Below, piece after piece: positions 36,052 through 57,254 of a stretch of 64,000 nt of DNA. Source of the stretch: Candidatus Pacearchaeota archaeon (lineage in GTDB: Archaea > Nanobdellota > Nanobdellia > Pacearchaeales > GW2011-AR1). The notes below the pieces were generated by a model that was not told the DNA's origin, ran no database searches, and saw only the letters and a program-made list of their open reading frames with translations. The DNA lies in NCBI GenBank assembly GCA_040879765.1, contig JBBDJQ010000002.1, forward strand, positions 5-64,004, written 5' to 3'. A program made the translations under genes and the position numbers. The first letter of the stretch is position 1. Each line of letters begins with the position of its first letter.

Positions 36052-36870
36052 ATGAAAATATTTATTGATTCGGCAGATTTAGATGAAATAAAGGAAGCAA
36101 AAGATTTAGGTTTGCTTGATGGTGTGACAACAAACCCCAGCTTAATAAAAAAAGCATTTGAAAAAAGAAAGGAAAAAGGTTTTGAAATTGAAGACTATAT
36201 TTGCGAGATTCTCAAAGTTTGTAAAGGAAAACCTGTAAGTTTAGAAGTTGTAGGAAAAACCTATGATGAAATGATTTCTGAAGGGAGAAATTTATTTAAA
36301 AAATTCAATAAAATTTCAAAAAATGTTTATGTTAAAATTCCTGTGAATCCTTGTTTAGAAGATAAATGCTCTAGGAGTTCTGATGGAATAAAAGCAATTA
36401 AAGAATTATCAAAAAATAAAATCCCTGTAAATTGTACATTGGTTTTCACTCCAGAGCAAGCCCTTTTAGCTGCGAAAGCAGGAGCAAAAATAGTTAGTCC
36501 ATTTACTGGCAGAGAAGATGATTATCTTAGAGAGGTCAATAGGATAAAGTTTGAAAAAGAAGATTATTTTCCAAAAAAAGGATTTAAGAATAAAAATAAA
36601 ATTTTAGAAGATAATGGAATTGTTTCTGGTGTGCATTTAGTTGAAGAGTGTGTTAAGATTCTAAAGGCTTCAAAATTAAAAACAGAAGTTCTTGCAGCAA
36701 GTATAAGAAATCTGAAACAATTTCGGGAAGTTGGCATGGCTGGTGCAGATATAGCAACCATCCCAATCATAATTATAAGAAGTTTATTAATTCATGAAAA
36801 AACTTCTGAAGGGATGAGAAATTTTACAAAAGATGTTATTCCAGAATATAAAAAGGTGGTAAAAAAATAA
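36052..36870 (+). CDS. tal: transaldolase / fructose-6-phosphate aldolase family
   Basis: MKIFIDSADLDEIKEA...GVTTNPSLI. Confidence 0.75.
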   Translation: MKIFIDSADLDEIKEAKDLGLLDGVTTNPSLIKKAFEKRKEKGFEIEDYICEILKVCKGKPVSLEVVGKTYDEMISEGRNLFKKFNKISKNVYVKIPVNPCLEDKCSRSSDGIKAIKELSKNKIPVNCTLVFTPEQALLAAKAGAKIVSPFTGREDDYLREVNRIKFEKEDYFPKKGFKNKNKILEDNGIVSGVHLVEECVKILKASKLKTEVLAASIRNLKQFREVGMAGADIATIPIIIIRSLLIHEKTSEGMRNFTKDVIPEYKKVVKK

Positions 36871-36878
36871 TAGTAAAA

Positions 36879-37772
36879 ATGAAATTTGATGTTGTATGTT
36901 TTGGGAGTGCAATGATTGATGCCTTCATGGAAACAAATACTCTTGAAGAAAAAGGACATTTAATGATTCCTTATGGCTGCAAGCAATTGCTTAAAAGTCT
37001 TAGTTTTGAAGTTGGAGGAGGAGGAACAAATACTTCTGTTGCATTTTCAAGACTTGGTTTAAAAACAGGATATATAGGAAAGATAGGAAACGATCAAAAT
37101 GGAAAATCTATAGAAGAAATTCTTAAAAAAGAAAATATTAGCTTCATTGGAAAAAAGATAAATGGCAAGACAAGTGGTTTTTCTGCAGTTCTAATAAGCA
37201 AGAATCATTATAGGTCCATACTTGCTTACAAAGGAATCAATGATGAAATTTCTAAAAAAGATTTGATAAATTTTGAAACAAAATGGCTTTATCTTTCTTC
37301 TATGATGGGTAAAAGCCTTAAAACCCAAATTGAATTAGCTAGTATATTAAAAAAAACTGGCACAAAGATTGTATTTAATCCTAGTGAATATCTTATAAAA
37401 TCAAGTAATTTAAATAAGATTATTGGGCTTTCTGATGTTTTGATTTTAAACAAGGAAGAGGCAGGATTTTTAACAGAGAGAAAAAATAAACTTAGGGCAA
37501 TTTCAGACATGGGCCCTAAAACAGTAGTCATAACTGATGCAGAAAAAACTGTGTATTGTTATAGTGATGGAAAATTTTATTCAAGAAAACCAAGAAAGAT
37601 AAGAGTCGTTGATAGAACAGGAGCAGGAGATGCATTTTCTGCAGGTTTTATTGCAGGACTTATAAAAGAAAAGTCGATTGACTTTTGTATGAAACTAGGG
37701 ATAAAAGAAGCCAAGGGAGTAATAAAAAACGTGGGTGCAAAAAATGGCCTAATAAGGATGAAGTTAAAATGA
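36879..37772 (+). CDS. PfkB-family carbohydrate kinase (possible phosphofructokinase or ribokinase)
   Basis: GGGGTN and DRTGAGDAF motifs. Confidence 0.7.
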   Translation: MKFDVVCFGSAMIDAFMETNTLEEKGHLMIPYGCKQLLKSLSFEVGGGGTNTSVAFSRLGLKTGYIGKIGNDQNGKSIEEILKKENISFIGKKINGKTSGFSAVLISKNHYRSILAYKGINDEISKKDLINFETKWLYLSSMMGKSLKTQIELASILKKTGTKIVFNPSEYLIKSSNLNKIIGLSDVLILNKEEAGFLTERKNKLRAISDMGPKTVVITDAEKTVYCYSDGKFYSRKPRKIRVVDRTGAGDAFSAGFIAGLIKEKSIDFCMKLGIKEAKGVIKNVGAKNGLIRMKLK

Positions 37773-38527
37773 AAATAAGATTAAACAAGATAATGAAAAA
37801 TGGCAAGGCATTATATTTGGCCTATGATCAGGGGATTGAGCATGGGCCTGAAAGCGACTTCAATGACAAATCTGTAGACCCAAAGGAGATTATAAAGATA
37901 GCAGAAAAAGGAAAATTTCAGGGTGTTGTACTCCATAAGGGCATAGCTGAAAAATATAAGGATGAAATAAAAAAATCAAAGGTTCCTCTAATATTGAAGC
38001 TTAATGGAAAAACAAAACTTTACAAAGGAGATCCTTATTCTCCTCCTCTTGGGACTGTAGAAGAAGCTGTAAATCTTGGAGCCTCTGCTGTAGGCTACAC
38101 AATATATCCTGGAAGCAAGTATGAGGGCAAGATGTTTAAAGAATTTGAAATAATTGAGAAGGATGCACATGCAAAAGGTCTTCCTGTTATAACATGGATT
38201 TATCCAAGGGGGGAAAATATAAAAAATGAAACTTCAAGGGAAATGATGGCTTATTCTGCCAGAATTGCGTTGGAGTTAGGTGCAGATATTGTTAAGATGA
38301 AGTACGGAGGAAATCTAAAAGATTTGAAATGGGCTGTAAGATCTGCAGGAAAAACCAAAGTGGTAATTTCAGGAGGGGTAAAAAAATCAAATAAGGAATT
38401 TCTAAAACAAGTAAGGGAAATAATGTCTTCAGGCGCCATTGGATTAGCTGTTGGAAGAAACATATGGCAAAGCAAAGATCCTCTGGATATAACCAATAAA
38501 ATAAAAAAGATAATTTTCTATAAATAA
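37769..38527 (+). CDS. fba: class I fructose-bisphosphate aldolase (archaeal DhnA/FbaB type)
   Basis: TIM-barrel aldolase pattern. Start moved to ATG 37769, which overlaps the pfkB stop in ATGA. Confidence 0.6.
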   Translation: MKIRLNKIMKNGKALYLAYDQGIEHGPESDFNDKSVDPKEIIKIAEKGKFQGVVLHKGIAEKYKDEIKKSKVPLILKLNGKTKLYKGDPYSPPLGTVEEAVNLGASAVGYTIYPGSKYEGKMFKEFEIIEKDAHAKGLPVITWIYPRGENIKNETSREMMAYSARIALELGADIVKMKYGGNLKDLKWAVRSAGKTKVVISGGVKKSNKEFLKQVREIMSSGAIGLAVGRNIWQSKDPLDITNKIKKIIFYK

Positions 38528-38528
38528 T

Positions 38529-38825
38529 ATGAAAAAAAGAAAAAAATTAAAAGAGAAATGGGATGGAGAGCCATCATTAGTTTCCCTGTCCCTTCTCACA
38601 TTTGCAACTCTTTTTACAGGAACAATTTTTTATAGTTATGTGGAAAATTTAAATCTTATAGATGCGCTCTATTTTAGTTTTATAACGCTTACAACAATAG
38701 GTTATGGAGATATTACACCTACAGGGTCCATATCGAAAATTTTTACTATCTTCTATGTAATTATAGGACTAGGGATTATTTTTGGATTCATAAACTTAAT
38801 TGCGAAAAGAAGGAGAAGGATATGA
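38529..38825 (+). CDS. minimal two-TM potassium channel (98 aa; selectivity filter TIGYGD)
   Basis: M1 helix, pore helix, TTIGYGDITP, M2 helix, then a short basic tail. No cytoplasmic domain. Confidence 0.75.
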   Translation: MKKRKKLKEKWDGEPSLVSLSLLTFATLFTGTIFYSYVENLNLIDALYFSFITLTTIGYGDITPTGSISKIFTIFYVIIGLGIIFGFINLIAKRRRRI

Positions 38826-39445
38826 TTGTTATAAATTTCAAAAACTATAAAGTAGGAGAAAAATCTCTGGAGCTTGCAAAAAAGATTGAGAAATTTTTTC
38901 CGAAAGCAATTGTTTCTGTGCCCTCCATTAATGCACAAAAGATAAAGGACAAAACAAAATTAGAAGTTTATTTGCAACATATTGATTTCCATGAAAAAGG
39001 GAAAAGTAGCGGGTTTTTAATTCCTGAAGCATCTAAATCAATAGGAATTGAAGGAAGTTTATTAAATCATTCAGAGCATAGGTTGAAATCAAAAGAAATA
39101 AAAAAAACAATTAAAAGAGCAAATAAAAATAAATTGAAAATTATCTTGTGCGTTAAATCGATTAGAGAAGCTAGAAAATATAAAAAAGAAAAACCCTTTG
39201 CAATTGCTTTCGAAGACCCAAAATTAATTTCAACTGGAAAATCAATTACAAAATATAAAAGTAAGGAATTATTAAAATTTATTTCCTTATTTAAGAAATC
39301 AAAAATTTTGCCCTTCTGTGGGGCGGGAATTTCTTCAAATGAAGATTATATTGAAGCATTAAAGATGGGTTGTAAAGGAGTCTTAATCTCATCAGCGATT
39401 GCAAATTCAAAAAATCCGGAAAATTTTTTAAAAAGAATAGTTTAA
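38822..39445 (+). CDS. tpiA: triosephosphate isomerase (short archaeal type)
   Basis: 207 aa. Archaeal TIM motifs including GAGISS. Confidence 0.75.
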   Translation: MIVINFKNYKVGEKSLELAKKIEKFFPKAIVSVPSINAQKIKDKTKLEVYLQHIDFHEKGKSSGFLIPEASKSIGIEGSLLNHSEHRLKSKEIKKTIKRANKNKLKIILCVKSIREARKYKKEKPFAIAFEDPKLISTGKSITKYKSKELLKFISLFKKSKILPFCGAGISSNEDYIEALKMGCKGVLISSAIANSKNPENFLKRIV

Positions 39446-39483
39446 AAAAGAAAAATATTTAATTATAAGGGAAAAAATTAAAA

Positions 39484-40158
39484 ATGGTAGTTAAAAAAAG
39501 AGGCAAAAAAAAAGATAAAGAGCATTGGTGGCAAGGACACAAGAATTTTAAAGTTGTGATTTTTGGGTCTTCGAGAATAAAAAATGATGATTCTAGTTAT
39601 AAAAGAGTTAAAAATCTTGCAAAAATGATTGGAGAAAGGGGGATAGATGTAATAACTGGAGGGGGCCCTGGATTGATGAAGGCTGCAAGTTATGGGCACC
39701 ACCTTGGAAGAAAAAAATCCAAAGTGAAGACACATACATTTGGCTTGTCCATAAGACTTCCAAATGAACAGGAAACTAATAAATTTGTAGATATAGAAAA
39801 AAATTTTGTAAGATTTTCAAACAGGATAGATAATTTTATGCTTTTGGCAAATGCGATTGTTATTGCTCCTGGAGGTGTTGGAACTCTTTTAGAATTATTC
39901 TATTCATGGCAATTAGTTCAAGTAAAACAGGCTTGTGACATCCCAATAATCCTTATGGGGGATCAATGGCCAGATTTAATAAAATGGCTGAAAAAATATC
40001 CTATGAAGAAGAAATTAATAGGAAAAGATGATATGAATTTTTTGTTCTTTGTTAAAACTCCAGAAGAAGCAATGGAAATTATAGACAAGACATGTGACAA
40101 ATATAATAAAGGTGAAAAGGATTTCTGTTTGAATTATAAGAAGTATAAATTTAATTAA
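39484..40158 (+). CDS. LOG-family protein (TIGR00730 Rossmann-fold nucleotide-binding)
   Basis: VITGGGPGLM and PGGVGTLLE motifs. Confidence 0.75.
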   Translation: MVVKKRGKKKDKEHWWQGHKNFKVVIFGSSRIKNDDSSYKRVKNLAKMIGERGIDVITGGGPGLMKAASYGHHLGRKKSKVKTHTFGLSIRLPNEQETNKFVDIEKNFVRFSNRIDNFMLLANAIVIAPGGVGTLLELFYSWQLVQVKQACDIPIILMGDQWPDLIKWLKKYPMKKKLIGKDDMNFLFFVKTPEEAMEIIDKTCDKYNKGEKDFCLNYKKYKFN

Positions 40159-43298: not shown

Positions 43299-44204
43299 AT
43301 GAAAAAACATATAGGATTTATAGGATTGGGAAAAATGGGAAGCAACATGGTCCTGAAGCTGCTTGACGAAGGCTACAGGATTTCTGTTTACAATCGCTCC
43401 TCTGGAAAATCTAAAAGCCTTGGGAAGAAAAAAAATGTTTACCCTTATTTTTCATTAAAAGAATTTTCTGAAAGCCTTTCTAAACCAAGAATCATATTTA
43501 TAATGGTGACTGCAGGAAAAGCCGTTGACAAAATCCTCGAAGAACTTGAACCCCAGCTTTCAAAAAAAGATATCATAATAGATGGAGGAAATTCTAATTA
43601 TGAAGATTCAATAAAAAGATATAAGAAATTAAAGAAAAAAGGTCTTTATTTTCTTGACGTAGGAGTTTCAGGAGGTGTCAAAAGAGCAAGAAACGGGACT
43701 AGTCTGATGATTGGGGGGGACAAAAATATTTTCAAAAAAGTCGAAACTTTATTCAGAGATTTGTCTGCGAAAAAAGGTTATGAATATTTTGGGACCTCAG
43801 GAGCAGGGCATTTTGTAAAAACCATTCACAATAGCATTGAATATTCTCTTTTAGAATCTTATGGAGAAGGCTTCGAGATTCTTCACAGAAGCAGAGAATA
43901 CAAATTAGATTATGAAAAAATTTCAAGAGTCTGGAATAATGGGAGCATAATACAGTCAAGAATAATTGAATTGGCTGAGAAGGTTTTTAGAAAAGAACCT
44001 GAGTTAAAAAATTTTATAGGAAAAATAGGAGGAGGGGAAACGGGAAGCTGGGGATTAAAGATTGCGAAAAAAGAAAAAGTTGAAGCAGGGGCCCTTGAAC
44101 ATGCAATCAAAAAAAGAAAGTCTTCTATGAAAAAACAGTCATTTTCAACAAAGTTCGTTTCCGCATTAAGGAAAGAATTTGGAGGTCATGAAGAGCCAAG
44201 ATAG
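43299..44204 (+). CDS. gnd: 6-phosphogluconate dehydrogenase, short form (about 300 aa, decarboxylating-like)
   Basis: GFIGLGKMGSNM N-terminus. Confidence 0.7.
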   Translation: MKKHIGFIGLGKMGSNMVLKLLDEGYRISVYNRSSGKSKSLGKKKNVYPYFSLKEFSESLSKPRIIFIMVTAGKAVDKILEELEPQLSKKDIIIDGGNSNYEDSIKRYKKLKKKGLYFLDVGVSGGVKRARNGTSLMIGGDKNIFKKVETLFRDLSAKKGYEYFGTSGAGHFVKTIHNSIEYSLLESYGEGFEILHRSREYKLDYEKISRVWNNGSIIQSRIIELAEKVFRKEPELKNFIGKIGGGETGSWGLKIAKKEKVEAGALEHAIKKRKSSMKKQSFSTKFVSALRKEFGGHEEPR

Positions 44205-44745: not shown

Positions 44746-45219
44746 ATGAAAAATAAAAAAATTTACATTTCAGGGGACCACGCTGGTTTTAATCTAAAAG
44801 AAGAAATAAAACCCTGGCTCCAAAAAGAAGGGTATGAAATAAGGGAGTTTGGACCTTATGATTACAAGAAAGATGATGATTATCCGGATTTTATCATCTC
44901 TATGGCTAAAGCTCTCGTAAAAGACAAGGATAAAAATTCAAGGGGATTGATAATTGCTGGCAGCGGACAAGGGGAGATGATAGCTGCAAACAAATTGAAG
45001 GGAATAAGAGCTGCCTTGTTTTATGGCGGAAATCTTAAGATAATTAAAACAACGAGAAAGCATAATGATTCCAATATTTTATGCATTGGAGCCAGATTCA
45101 TAAGAGATGAAGCAGAGGTCAAAAAAGCTATTGATTTATTTCTAAAGACCAGGTTTAGCAATGCTGGAAGACATAAGAGAAGGTTGGAGAAATTTAAAAG
45201 TCTGGGTTCTAAATTATAA
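44746..45219 (+). CDS. rpiB: ribose-5-phosphate isomerase B
   Basis: IYISGDHAGF...GLIIAGSGQGEMIAANK. Confidence 0.8.
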   Translation: MKNKKIYISGDHAGFNLKEEIKPWLQKEGYEIREFGPYDYKKDDDYPDFIISMAKALVKDKDKNSRGLIIAGSGQGEMIAANKLKGIRAALFYGGNLKIIKTTRKHNDSNILCIGARFIRDEAEVKKAIDLFLKTRFSNAGRHKRRLEKFKSLGSKL

Positions 45220-45257: not shown

Positions 45258-46331
45258 ATGAAGTTAAAAGAGATTCATAAAAAAGTTCCCAAAAAAAAGA
45301 ACAGGGGATTTTATCTTCTTGGGTTTATTATTTCACTTTATTTTTTCATCCTTTCAATTACAATAATTGTTCATTCCTTTTCTTTAATGGGAGAATCATT
45401 ATTTAATATAACAAAAAATGATTTAGATCCTTTGAATGCTCTTGGGATTGGATGGCTTCTGACTCTTATTATGCAATCAAGCGGGGCTGCGGCCTCTGGA
45501 CTCATGGCCCTGAGTCATGCAGGAGTGATAGGAACAGGAATTTTAATTTACATGATTATTGGGACAAGAATAGGAACGACAATTACAGCCTTAGTTGTTT
45601 CTCTTCTGATTCCAGCAAAAAGAAGGGACTTTAGACATGGTTTTGAAATAGGACTCGCCAATCTCGTTTTTGCGTTTCCTATAGTGATTGTAATGTTTCT
45701 TATAGAATTCTTCTTTTCGTTTTTCTCAAATGCTGGAGAGTATTTTTCAGGGATTAACACTTCTTTTTCAATTGGCTTTATAGAGGTGATAACAATTCCG
45801 GTGATAGAAATTCTGGGATTTGTTCCATTATACCTTCTTGGAATTTTAGGAGTCTTGCTCCTTATTATTAGCCTTAGAAAAATGCCCGATTTCATGTTTG
45901 AGCTTTGGGGAAGAGATTATGTAAAAAAACAGATGAATAAATACATGGACAAAAAAACCTTCTCATTCTTTGCTGGGCTTTTGATATCCATTCTTCTGGC
46001 TTCGACAACCACCACAATAACGCTCCTGATTCCTTTGATAGTCTCAAGAGTCATGAATCTAAAAAAAGTGATTCCTTACATAATCGGGACGAATCTTGGA
46101 GGTGTCATAGACATTTTGATAACAGGTCTGGTAATAGGTAGTTCTGCAATCCCTGCAGTTTTTACGTATGTTTCATTCAGCCTCATAGGTCTTCTATGGC
46201 TCTTAAACACAAACCTTCTGTTCAACATAACAAAATCCATATCAAAAAGAACCCTGCACGTTTCAAGAAAAAGAGCATTTTATTTCTTAATCGGTTTTAT
46301 ACTTCTCTCTGTTATTTTGAGTTTTGCATAA
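45258..46331 (+). CDS. Na+/phosphate cotransporter (PNaS) family membrane protein
   Basis: Two repeats of a QSSGA/GSSA-type motif within multiple TM helices. Confidence 0.45.
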   Translation: MKLKEIHKKVPKKKNRGFYLLGFIISLYFFILSITIIVHSFSLMGESLFNITKNDLDPLNALGIGWLLTLIMQSSGAAASGLMALSHAGVIGTGILIYMIIGTRIGTTITALVVSLLIPAKRRDFRHGFEIGLANLVFAFPIVIVMFLIEFFFSFFSNAGEYFSGINTSFSIGFIEVITIPVIEILGFVPLYLLGILGVLLLIISLRKMPDFMFELWGRDYVKKQMNKYMDKKTFSFFAGLLISILLASTTTTITLLIPLIVSRVMNLKKVIPYIIGTNLGGVIDILITGLVIGSSAIPAVFTYVSFSLIGLLWLLNTNLLFNITKSISKRTLHVSRKRAFYFLIGFILLSVILSFA

Positions 46332-50948: not shown

Positions 50949-51067
50949 GCGTGGTTAGTTTAGTGGTAGAACAGGACGTTGCCAATACCAGTTTTTTAAA
51001 AAAAGTCGGCGCTCAAAAAGAGCAAAGCAAAAACGTTCAAACGCGGGTTCGATTCCCGCATCGCGCA
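50949..51067 (+). tRNA. tRNA-Gly (anticodon GCC) with an approximately 48-nt intron at or near the canonical 37/38 position
   Basis: Acceptor GCGTGGT/ATCGCGC, D-arm GTTT-AGTGGTA-GAAC, anticodon stem GGACG...CGTTC (the 3' half lies after the intron), loop TTGCCAA, T-arm GCGGGTTCGATTCCCGC, T-tract afterwards. Confidence 0.6.
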
Positions 51068-57053: not shown

Positions 57054-57254
57054 CCCCGTGTAGCTTAGTGGTAAAGCGTCTGGCTGTAGATTGCAAGGAC
57101 ACCTAACGGTTTCCTTTGCGTAACCTTCCTTTGAGTTAGTCTTTAGGGAAATCTAGCATGGACATTCCGTTAGGAATTGGATGAAATGTGAAAAGTCGAT
57201 GGAATTCAGGGTGCAGAACCCGGAAGACCCCAAGTTCGAATCTTGGCACGGGGA
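57054..57254 (+). tRNA. tRNA-Tyr (anticodon GTA) with an approximately 129-nt intron
   Basis: 5' half: CCCCGTG-TA-GCTT-AGTGGTA-AAGC-G-TCTGG-CTGTAGA. 3' half: CCGGA-AGACC-CCAAGTTCGAATCTTGG-CACGGGG-A. The intron contains a CCTAACGG...CCGTTAGG stem. Confidence 0.6.

Follow-up and report, generated by a model that had tools for sequence, protein, structure and literature searches.

Within the 64,000-nucleotide stretch of Candidatus Pacearchaeota DNA analysed here (the window), we identified a gene for a 98-residue K+ channel subunit that lies between an aldolase gene (fba) and a triosephosphate isomerase gene (tpi). As judged from its sequence, this channel is a member of the known and well-studied NaK family that lacks the M0 helix and natively carries a K+-type filter, here in a DPANN archaeon. 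We consider it likely that it acts as a pore-only K+ channel subunit that was placed at this position by one insertion and that is not tied mechanistically to glycolysis. The unusual operon position is limited to one small clade.

The first-pass annotation of this DNA had put the gene forward as a candidate for a minimal prokaryotic K+ channel. That it represents a new kind of such channel is not supported: the protein is a member of the NaK family, for which the structure of the 110-aa founding member dates from 2006 (2ahy), and the exact same protein is already annotated in NCBI, where it is identical to MEX0933073.1 ([quoted passage not shown]), encoded on a 68.7-kb contig.

A two-helix pore-loop subunit without a sensor domain

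The channel gene (38529..38825, + strand), identified as encoding a NaK-family two-transmembrane (two-TM) K+ channel subunit from its matches to PF07885 and to the structure 3ouf, starts with an ATG at 38529 and ends with a TGA stop codon at 38823-38825. Its 98-residue product, read directly from the sequence, is MKKRKKLKEKWDGEPSLVSLSLLTFATLFTGTIFYSYVENLNLIDALYFSFITLTTIGYGDITPTGSISKIFTIFYVIIGLGIIFGFINLIAKRRRRI. It contains the full M1, pore and M2 (all coordinates on the + strand). A short and Lys-rich N-terminus (residues 1-16; 38529..38576), predicted as coil with a mean pLDDT of 59 over residues 1-10 and presumably cytoplasmic, precedes the predicted outer transmembrane helix M1 (residues 17-38; 38577..38642; pLDDT 98), which aligns with M1 of NaK. 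The predicted pore helix (residues 43-54, including Y48; 38655..38690) is followed by the selectivity filter TTIGYGD (residues 55-61; 38691..38711), which can be read in the sequence as T56-I-G-Y-G60 and then D61. The predicted inner helix M2 (residues 67-97; 38727..38819), which also aligns with 3ouf, includes G80 and G82 in its hinge region as well as F85, and the basic tail KRRRRI occupies residues 93-98 (38805..38822).

The helix boundaries come from an AlphaFold2 monomer model built with 60 homologues (mean pLDDT 90), in which a disordered N-terminus (residues 1-16) is followed by M1, the pore helix, the filter loop and M2. A transmembrane and pore prediction had been proposed as a check in the first-pass annotation. 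The model gives helices at residues 17-38, 43-54 and 67-97 and, together with the ORF and Pfam, bears out the description of the product as a K+ channel subunit that has two TM helices, a pore loop, a canonical filter and a basic KRRRRI tail. Both termini are strongly basic (MKKRKKLKEK at the N-terminus and KRRRRI at the C-terminus), which, by the positive-inside rule, would fit the cytoplasmic-in topology of K+ channels. The only Pfam matches of the protein were to the pore families Ion_trans_2 and Ion_trans; no sensor domain (RCK, CNBD, voltage or other ligand domain) was detected with Pfam, and the C-terminus extends at most five residues past M2.

The channel belongs to the NaK family

The match to Ion_trans_2 (PF07885) reached 76.3 bits for a cut-off of 22.5 (E 1.7e-21) and covered profile positions 2-75 of 79. 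When PDB sequences were searched with phmmer, the top match was 3ouf, the engineered K+-selective NaK2K, with an E-value of 1.4e-23; the two proteins share about 60% of the 73 residues at positions 20-92. The best 26 matches of this search were all constructs derived from Bacillus cereus NaK (NaK, NaK2K and chimeras), and K2P, TOK and MthK pores ranked below them, with E-values of 1e-13 or weaker. Comparing structures rather than sequences, all 50 Foldseek matches listed for the PDB were again NaK-derived constructs, with TM-scores (on the query) of 0.65-0.80 and, for the best matches, an rmsd of 0.7-2.0 A over 73-85 residues; the values were 0.7 A over 75 columns for closed NaK (2q67_B) and 1.9 A over 73 columns for NaK2K (3ouf_B). 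Named family members from Bacillus were 51-62% identical to the channel over the aligned regions.

This similarity extends to individual residues of the pore. With an offset of seven positions, Y48, Y59 and D61 of the channel correspond to Y55, Y66 and D68 of NaK2K, which are the positions probed in the mutant entries 3t4d, 3t4z, 3tet and 3tcu, and G80, G82 and F85 align with G87, G89 and F92 of NaK. In an alignment of 60 family sequences, Y48, T56 and G58 were invariant, and Y59, G60, D61, G80 and G82 were each conserved in at least 90% of the sequences. From its 60% identity to the tetrameric NaK2K, the protein would be expected to form a homotetramer with a conducting pore, and a conductance and a K+ selectivity would likewise be expected from homology. 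Our literature search found no paper establishing a physiological role for NaK and nothing specific on K+ channels in DPANN, and the gating of NaK is still debated (PMC9640265).

The channel gene lies in a string of sugar-phosphate genes

The channel gene is the fourth gene of a same-strand string (36052-40158) with the order TAL-pfkB-fba-channel-tpi-LOG. This string starts with genes for a transaldolase and a PfkB sugar kinase (36052..37772, +; PF00923 and PF00294), continues with fba, encoding a class I DeoC/LacD-family aldolase (37769..38527, +; PF01791, E 2.3e-46), and, after the channel gene, with tpi, encoding a short triosephosphate isomerase of 207 aa (38822..39445, +; PF00121, E 9.2e-26), and it ends with a LOG/lysine-decarboxylase-like gene (39484..40158, +; PF03641 and PF18306). 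A single base (38528) separates the TAA stop of fba, which ends at 38527, from the ATG of the channel gene, and the stop of the latter shares an ATGA with the start of tpi, whose ATG is at 38822. The 1-nt gap and the 4-nt overlap described in the first-pass annotation are both directly readable in the sequence. The pfkB and fba genes likewise overlap by 4 nt as ATGA (fba ATG at 37769), and the gaps between TAL and pfkB and between tpi and LOG are of 8 nt and 38 nt, respectively. The tight same-strand packing from TAL through tpi, with spacings of 0-8 nt and overlaps, makes it most likely, judging from spacing alone, that the channel gene is co-transcribed with the sugar-phosphate genes.

The string is flanked by a divergent minus-strand SUF Fe-S cluster and by a convergent minus-strand transketolase gene. 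Farther downstream lie genes for an epimerase, 6-phosphogluconate dehydrogenase, RpiB and a Na/Pi cotransporter, and the identities of all these neighbours indicate that the region is a sugar-phosphate metabolism island. The Na+/Pi cotransporter-family gene (45258-46331, +) comes right after those for 6-phosphogluconate dehydrogenase (43299-44204) and RpiB (44746-45219), and is a second transporter gene among the sugar-phosphate genes of the window.

The end of the channel gene may have an additional function. The codons of the KRRRRI tail, AAAAGAAGGAGAAGGATA (38805-38821), contain a GGAG located 9-12 nt upstream of the tpi ATG, and their counterpart in the related locus L001 (see below), AAGGAGGAT (L001:2128-2147), contains a GGAGG, so that the motifs fall 5-12 nt before the tpi ATG. 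No GGAG-type motif was found before tpi in channel-less relatives such as L002, which rely on the ATGA overlap. As a speculation based on these motifs, the Arg-rich tail codons may both encode the end of the channel and offer tpi a Shine-Dalgarno site; we put forward such a ribosome-binding role only cautiously, because the window shows hardly any enrichment of Shine-Dalgarno-like motifs (13 of 61 genes, or 21%, compared with 12.6% at random positions).

The GC content of the window is about 32%, and the channel gene has a GC and a GC3 equal to those of its neighbours. A recent foreign origin of the channel gene, which we also considered, was rejected since no compositional signal for it was found. 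As a side observation on the window, Rfam reports three tRNAs and ARAGORN only one; the two that Rfam reports in addition (50949-51067 and 57054-57254, +) are unusually long, with 119 and 201 nt, and may contain introns.

A probable single insertion at the fba/tpi junction in a small clade

We then compared this locus with its counterparts in other genomes. The fba-channel-tpi-LOG arrangement was seen in two further metagenomic lineages. On L001, a PfkB-aldolase-channel-TIM-LOG order includes a channel of 94 aa (P0002, 68% identical), with a gap of 1 nt upstream and a 1-nt TGATG overlap downstream, and on L009 and L010, an aldolase-channel-TIM-LOG order includes a channel of 97 aa (P0005, 60% identical), whose gene directly abuts the aldolase gene and overlaps the TIM gene as ATGA. 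The TTIGYGD filter is kept in the channels of L001, L009 and L010, and the channel is thus conserved in relatives with an undisrupted filter, where a loss or a disruption had been named in the first-pass annotation as an outcome that would speak against its reading. The LOG/lysine-decarboxylase-like (SLOG) gene directly follows tpi in L001, L002 and L009, which are all the close relatives examined, whether or not the channel gene is present.

A scan of GTDB species genomes with the aldolase gave seven relatives. In five of them (L002, L003, L005, L006 and L008), which are of DPANN type and comparably or more distantly related, fba and tpi overlap directly, without a channel gene. The closest of these channel-less relatives is L002, with an fba that is 70% identical. 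L007, a Woesearchaeota MAG, carries at the same junction an unrelated ORF (765-1379, +) for a 204-aa multi-TM protein with no Pfam match, which starts 10 nt ahead of the fba stop and whose end overlaps, as ATGA, with what is probably the start of tpi (1376). Small membrane-protein genes thus seem to have entered the fba/tpi junction on more than one occasion. L004 has the aldolase gene, and a TIM gene was not recognisable within its contig. This contig (JAQTNM010000170.1) is labelled Candidatus Omnitrophota bacterium, and its aldolase is 60% identical to the archaeal one, which could be the result of a binning error or of a gene transfer.

The presence of directly joined fba and tpi genes in five genomes fits one insertion in a small clade rather than a universal need. 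When the aldolase and TIM sequences were concatenated and used for a neighbour-joining tree, the window, L001 and L009 were grouped with a bootstrap of 72%, with L002 outside. In a neighbour-joining tree of the channels only (121 sequences, 77 columns), the window channel and P0002 were grouped at 66%, and the addition of P0005 was found at only 15%. Considering that this second tree leaves the three syntenic channels unsupported as a clade, the claim of a single insertion rests on synteny and on the tree of the flanking genes. What had first been described as an insertion between fba and tpi thus indeed looks like an insertion into an ancestrally contiguous pair, as seen from the channel-less relatives and from the fba and tpi tree. 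The fundamental role that had been suggested from the same position is not supported, given the absence of the channel gene from this locus in L002 and in four more distant DPANN-type genomes.

At the sequence level, purifying selection acts on the channel, with a dN/dS of 0.09-0.20, a ratio to be read with synonymous sites that are saturated. Its dN was 0.22-0.40, compared with 0.24-0.35 for tpi and 0.15-0.22 for the aldolase, again with saturated synonymous sites (pS of about 0.7).

These observations bear on an alternative in which the position of the channel gene is functional, so that expression of a K+ conductance is deliberately joined to that of sugar-phosphate metabolism. K+ is an activator of pyruvate kinase and of kinases of the PfkB family. 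The channel might supply K+ to such enzymes, or it might hold the membrane potential steady in a fermentative cell whose ATP comes from glycolysis. Three lineages, with flanking enzymes that are only 64-73% identical, keep the arrangement and its tight coupling (0-1 nt between the channel gene and the gene before it, and 1-4 nt shared with the gene after it), the channel is under purifying selection, and the Na/Pi cotransporter gene likewise follows the 6-phosphogluconate dehydrogenase and RpiB genes in the window, all of which would agree with a functional position. However, the channel gene is missing from this junction in genomes at a comparable or greater evolutionary distance, neither fba nor tpi was found near relatives of the channel at any of 80 further metagenomic loci, the unrelated membrane ORF of L007 suggests that the site simply tolerates insertions, and descent alone would give synteny within one small clade. 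We therefore regard a functional position as unlikely and favour a single insertion followed by inheritance.

A subgroup of the family lacks the M0 helix

A word-indexed search gave 171 relatives of the channel at E ≤1e-5. The 120 relatives among the matches listed have 82-163 aa; their sources are Bacillus, Brevibacillus, Enterococcus, Saccharibacteria, Patescibacteria, Rhizobiaceae, Solirubrobacterales and many metagenomic contigs. An exhaustive HMMER search retrieved 13,149 cluster representatives at E ≤1e-3 and 2,509 at E ≤1e-10; its top ranks were occupied by multi-pore proteins, and it also gave proteins with a single pore, which have 97-160 aa and are 45-60% identical.

In the alignment of the family, N-terminal columns that are filled in most homologues, and which correspond to the M0 interfacial helix of NaK, are gaps in the channel and in P0005, P0011, P0013, P0028, P0031, P0038, P0044 and P0061. 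An amphipathic N-terminal M0 helix is absent from the channel, as seen from these alignment gaps and from residues 1-16, which are modelled as coil with a low pLDDT. An M0-less subgroup is thus present in the NaK family, as far as the alignment can tell. The shortest entries among the matches listed, P0032 (82 aa) and P0087 (84 aa), begin inside M1 and are probably truncated or annotated with a wrong start codon. With these two set aside, the complete proteins of fewer than 100 aa among the matches listed are P0001, P0002, P0005 and P0011, the latter (91 aa) being encoded on a 672-bp contig with an unrelated context.

Starting from this subgroup, one could propose that M0-less and natively K+-selective NaK-type channels of 91-102 aa are the cellular counterpart of viral miniature channels and are characteristic of ultra-small, genome-reduced organisms (DPANN, and Saccharibacteria with P0013), and that the channel of this Pacearchaeota clade is wired into its glycolytic operon so that the K+ conductance scales with the sugar-phosphate flux. 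If this were true, its position would reflect a real physiological coupling of K+ conductance to sugar-phosphate flux and not an insertion accident. We judge this proposal, taken as a whole, to be distinctly unlikely.

The native filter is of the K+ type

A T[IV]GYGD filter is native not only to the channel but also to 93 of the 120 homologues among the matches listed, including several from the Bacillus cereus group, and an Asp at the position of the filter Tyr was found in P0015 only (TVGDSD) among these matches. This distribution makes the TVGDGN filter of NaK an exception within its own family and, from these sequences, the non-selective filter of NaK looks like a derived exception. The B. 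cereus-group members P0004, P0007, P0010, P0015 and P0023 mostly have a native TVGYGD or TVGYGE.

These results also allow weighing the possibility that the channel, like wild-type NaK, conducts monovalent cations without selectivity. Its closest relatives in sequence and in fold are indeed NaK constructs, and even NaK2K is termed just "partly K+-selective" in one paper (PMC9409022). However, according to PMC9822992, wild-type NaK is non-selective through its TVGDGN filter, in which two ion sites are left, and changing this filter to TVGYGD gives four sites together with K+ selectivity. The channel has TIGYGD at this place, and its highest-scoring PDB match is the K+-selective mutant and not the wild type. 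A non-selective channel is therefore quite improbable, and we retain a K+-selective pore as the reading that best fits the filter.

Similarity to viral miniature channels is limited to the pore

With 98 aa and no extra domain, the channel has a Kcv-like size, as had been stated in the first-pass annotation: viral pore-only K+ channels of fewer than 100 aa are described, as a viral finding, in a 2025 review, which gives the 78-aa Kmpv12T as the smallest functional one (PMC12332018). The further suggestion that the channel is specifically relevant to the origin of Kcv found no support. We also considered that it is a cellular relative or an ancestor of such miniature channels. Besides the similar size and the pore-only architecture, what speaks for such a relationship is that, when viral structures in BFVD were searched with Foldseek, the named viral channel matches had TM-scores (on the query) of 0.52-0.76. 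Yet these named potassium- or ion-channel matches were only 14-30% identical, with E-values of 6e-3 or worse. A BLASTP comparison with Kcv of PBCV-1 gave 41% identity over just 44 residues (34 bits), covering the pore helix, the filter and the start of M2, and a scan of IMG/VR gave two matches only, each limited to a stretch of 32-37 residues that includes the filter. Across the whole core, the similarity to NaK-family proteins is twice as high, with about 60% identity to NaK over 73 residues. We thus rejected a specific link to Kcv, with BFVD, BLASTP and IMG/VR detecting generic pore similarity alone, and consider a cellular relative or ancestor of Kcv-type channels very improbable. With such a low specific similarity, all that the channel says about where Kcv came from is the general point that pore-only channels exist in cells. 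That complete pore-only K+ channels of fewer than 100 aa exist outside viruses is nevertheless a point that is not discussed in the Kcv literature (PMC12332018).

Proposed mechanism and history

That the gene could be a spurious ORF or the decaying remnant of a larger channel, as might be feared for a short gene in an AT-rich genome (31% GC) where chance ORFs are common and where several antisense ORFs are present, is effectively refuted by E-values of 1e-21 to 1e-23, by a complete core with full M1, pore and M2, by syntenic orthologues of the same length and by the dN/dS of 0.09-0.20.

We propose a model in which the channel works as a NaK-family pore. Four subunits would assemble as a tetramer, and the native TTIGYGD, together with the conserved Tyr48 of the pore helix (with the filter Tyr and Asp), would form a four-site K+-selective filter as in the engineered NaK2K, through which K+ would pass passively, down its electrochemical gradient. 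Since the protein has no M0 helix, no voltage sensor and no RCK or other ligand domain, gating would have to reside in the pore itself, at the filter and at the M2 hinge and Phe85 region. From its position in the string, the gene would be expressed at a housekeeping level. The physiological role of the channel could be a K+ uptake driven by the membrane potential or the setting of this potential. As for its history, the gene would have been inserted once, in a small Pacearchaeota-like clade of DPANN, where fba and tpi ancestrally overlapped as ATGA, and would then have descended vertically under purifying selection.

The channel is of interest as a natural form of what structural biologists have engineered, namely a NaK that is shortened at the N-terminus and whose filter is changed to TVGYGD. 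Together with its orthologues of 94 and 97 aa, it could provide naturally minimal K+-selective cellular pore modules for biophysics, with a practical value that is modest. The operon position neatly illustrates how, in a compact DPANN genome, a gene can be inserted where a stop and a start codon overlap; by itself, it opens no long-standing question.

Comparison with known channels

The viral miniature K+ channels (Kcv and relatives, 78-124 aa) resemble the channel in their pore-only architecture, in a size that can be below 100 aa, in a TxxTxG[YF]GD filter and in their overall fold, but they differ from it by a low identity and by the cellular genome context of the present gene. KcsA of Streptomyces lividans is likewise a two-TM channel with a TVGYGD-type filter, and a BLASTP comparison with its sequence gave 32% identity over 44 residues. 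KcsA has 160 aa and is gated by pH, and it carries a helical bundle at its C-terminus; the channel has neither feature. MthK, Kch and other RCK-gated prokaryotic K+ channels have a homologous pore (E 3.5e-9 for the MthK pore); they carry a ligand domain, whereas the present protein consists of the pore only, with no RCK.

The closest known systems remain NaK and NaK2K (2ahy, 3e83 and 3ouf), which have the same fold of M1, pore helix, filter and M2, with no cytoplasmic domain in either protein. The glycines of M2 and a Phe equivalent to F92 are common to NaK and to the channel, and the TxGYGD filter is common to NaK2K and to the channel. N-terminally shortened NaK pore constructs have been crystallised many times and, with 92-97 residues, have a length close to the 98 aa of the channel. 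Compared with wild-type NaK, which has a TVGDGN filter and an M0 helix, the channel has a filter that is natively of the K+ type and lacks those extra N-terminal residues, and its M2 ends with the short KRRRRI tail. Finally, NaK comes from a Firmicute, whereas the channel described here comes from a DPANN archaeon, where its gene lies inside a sugar-phosphate operon.
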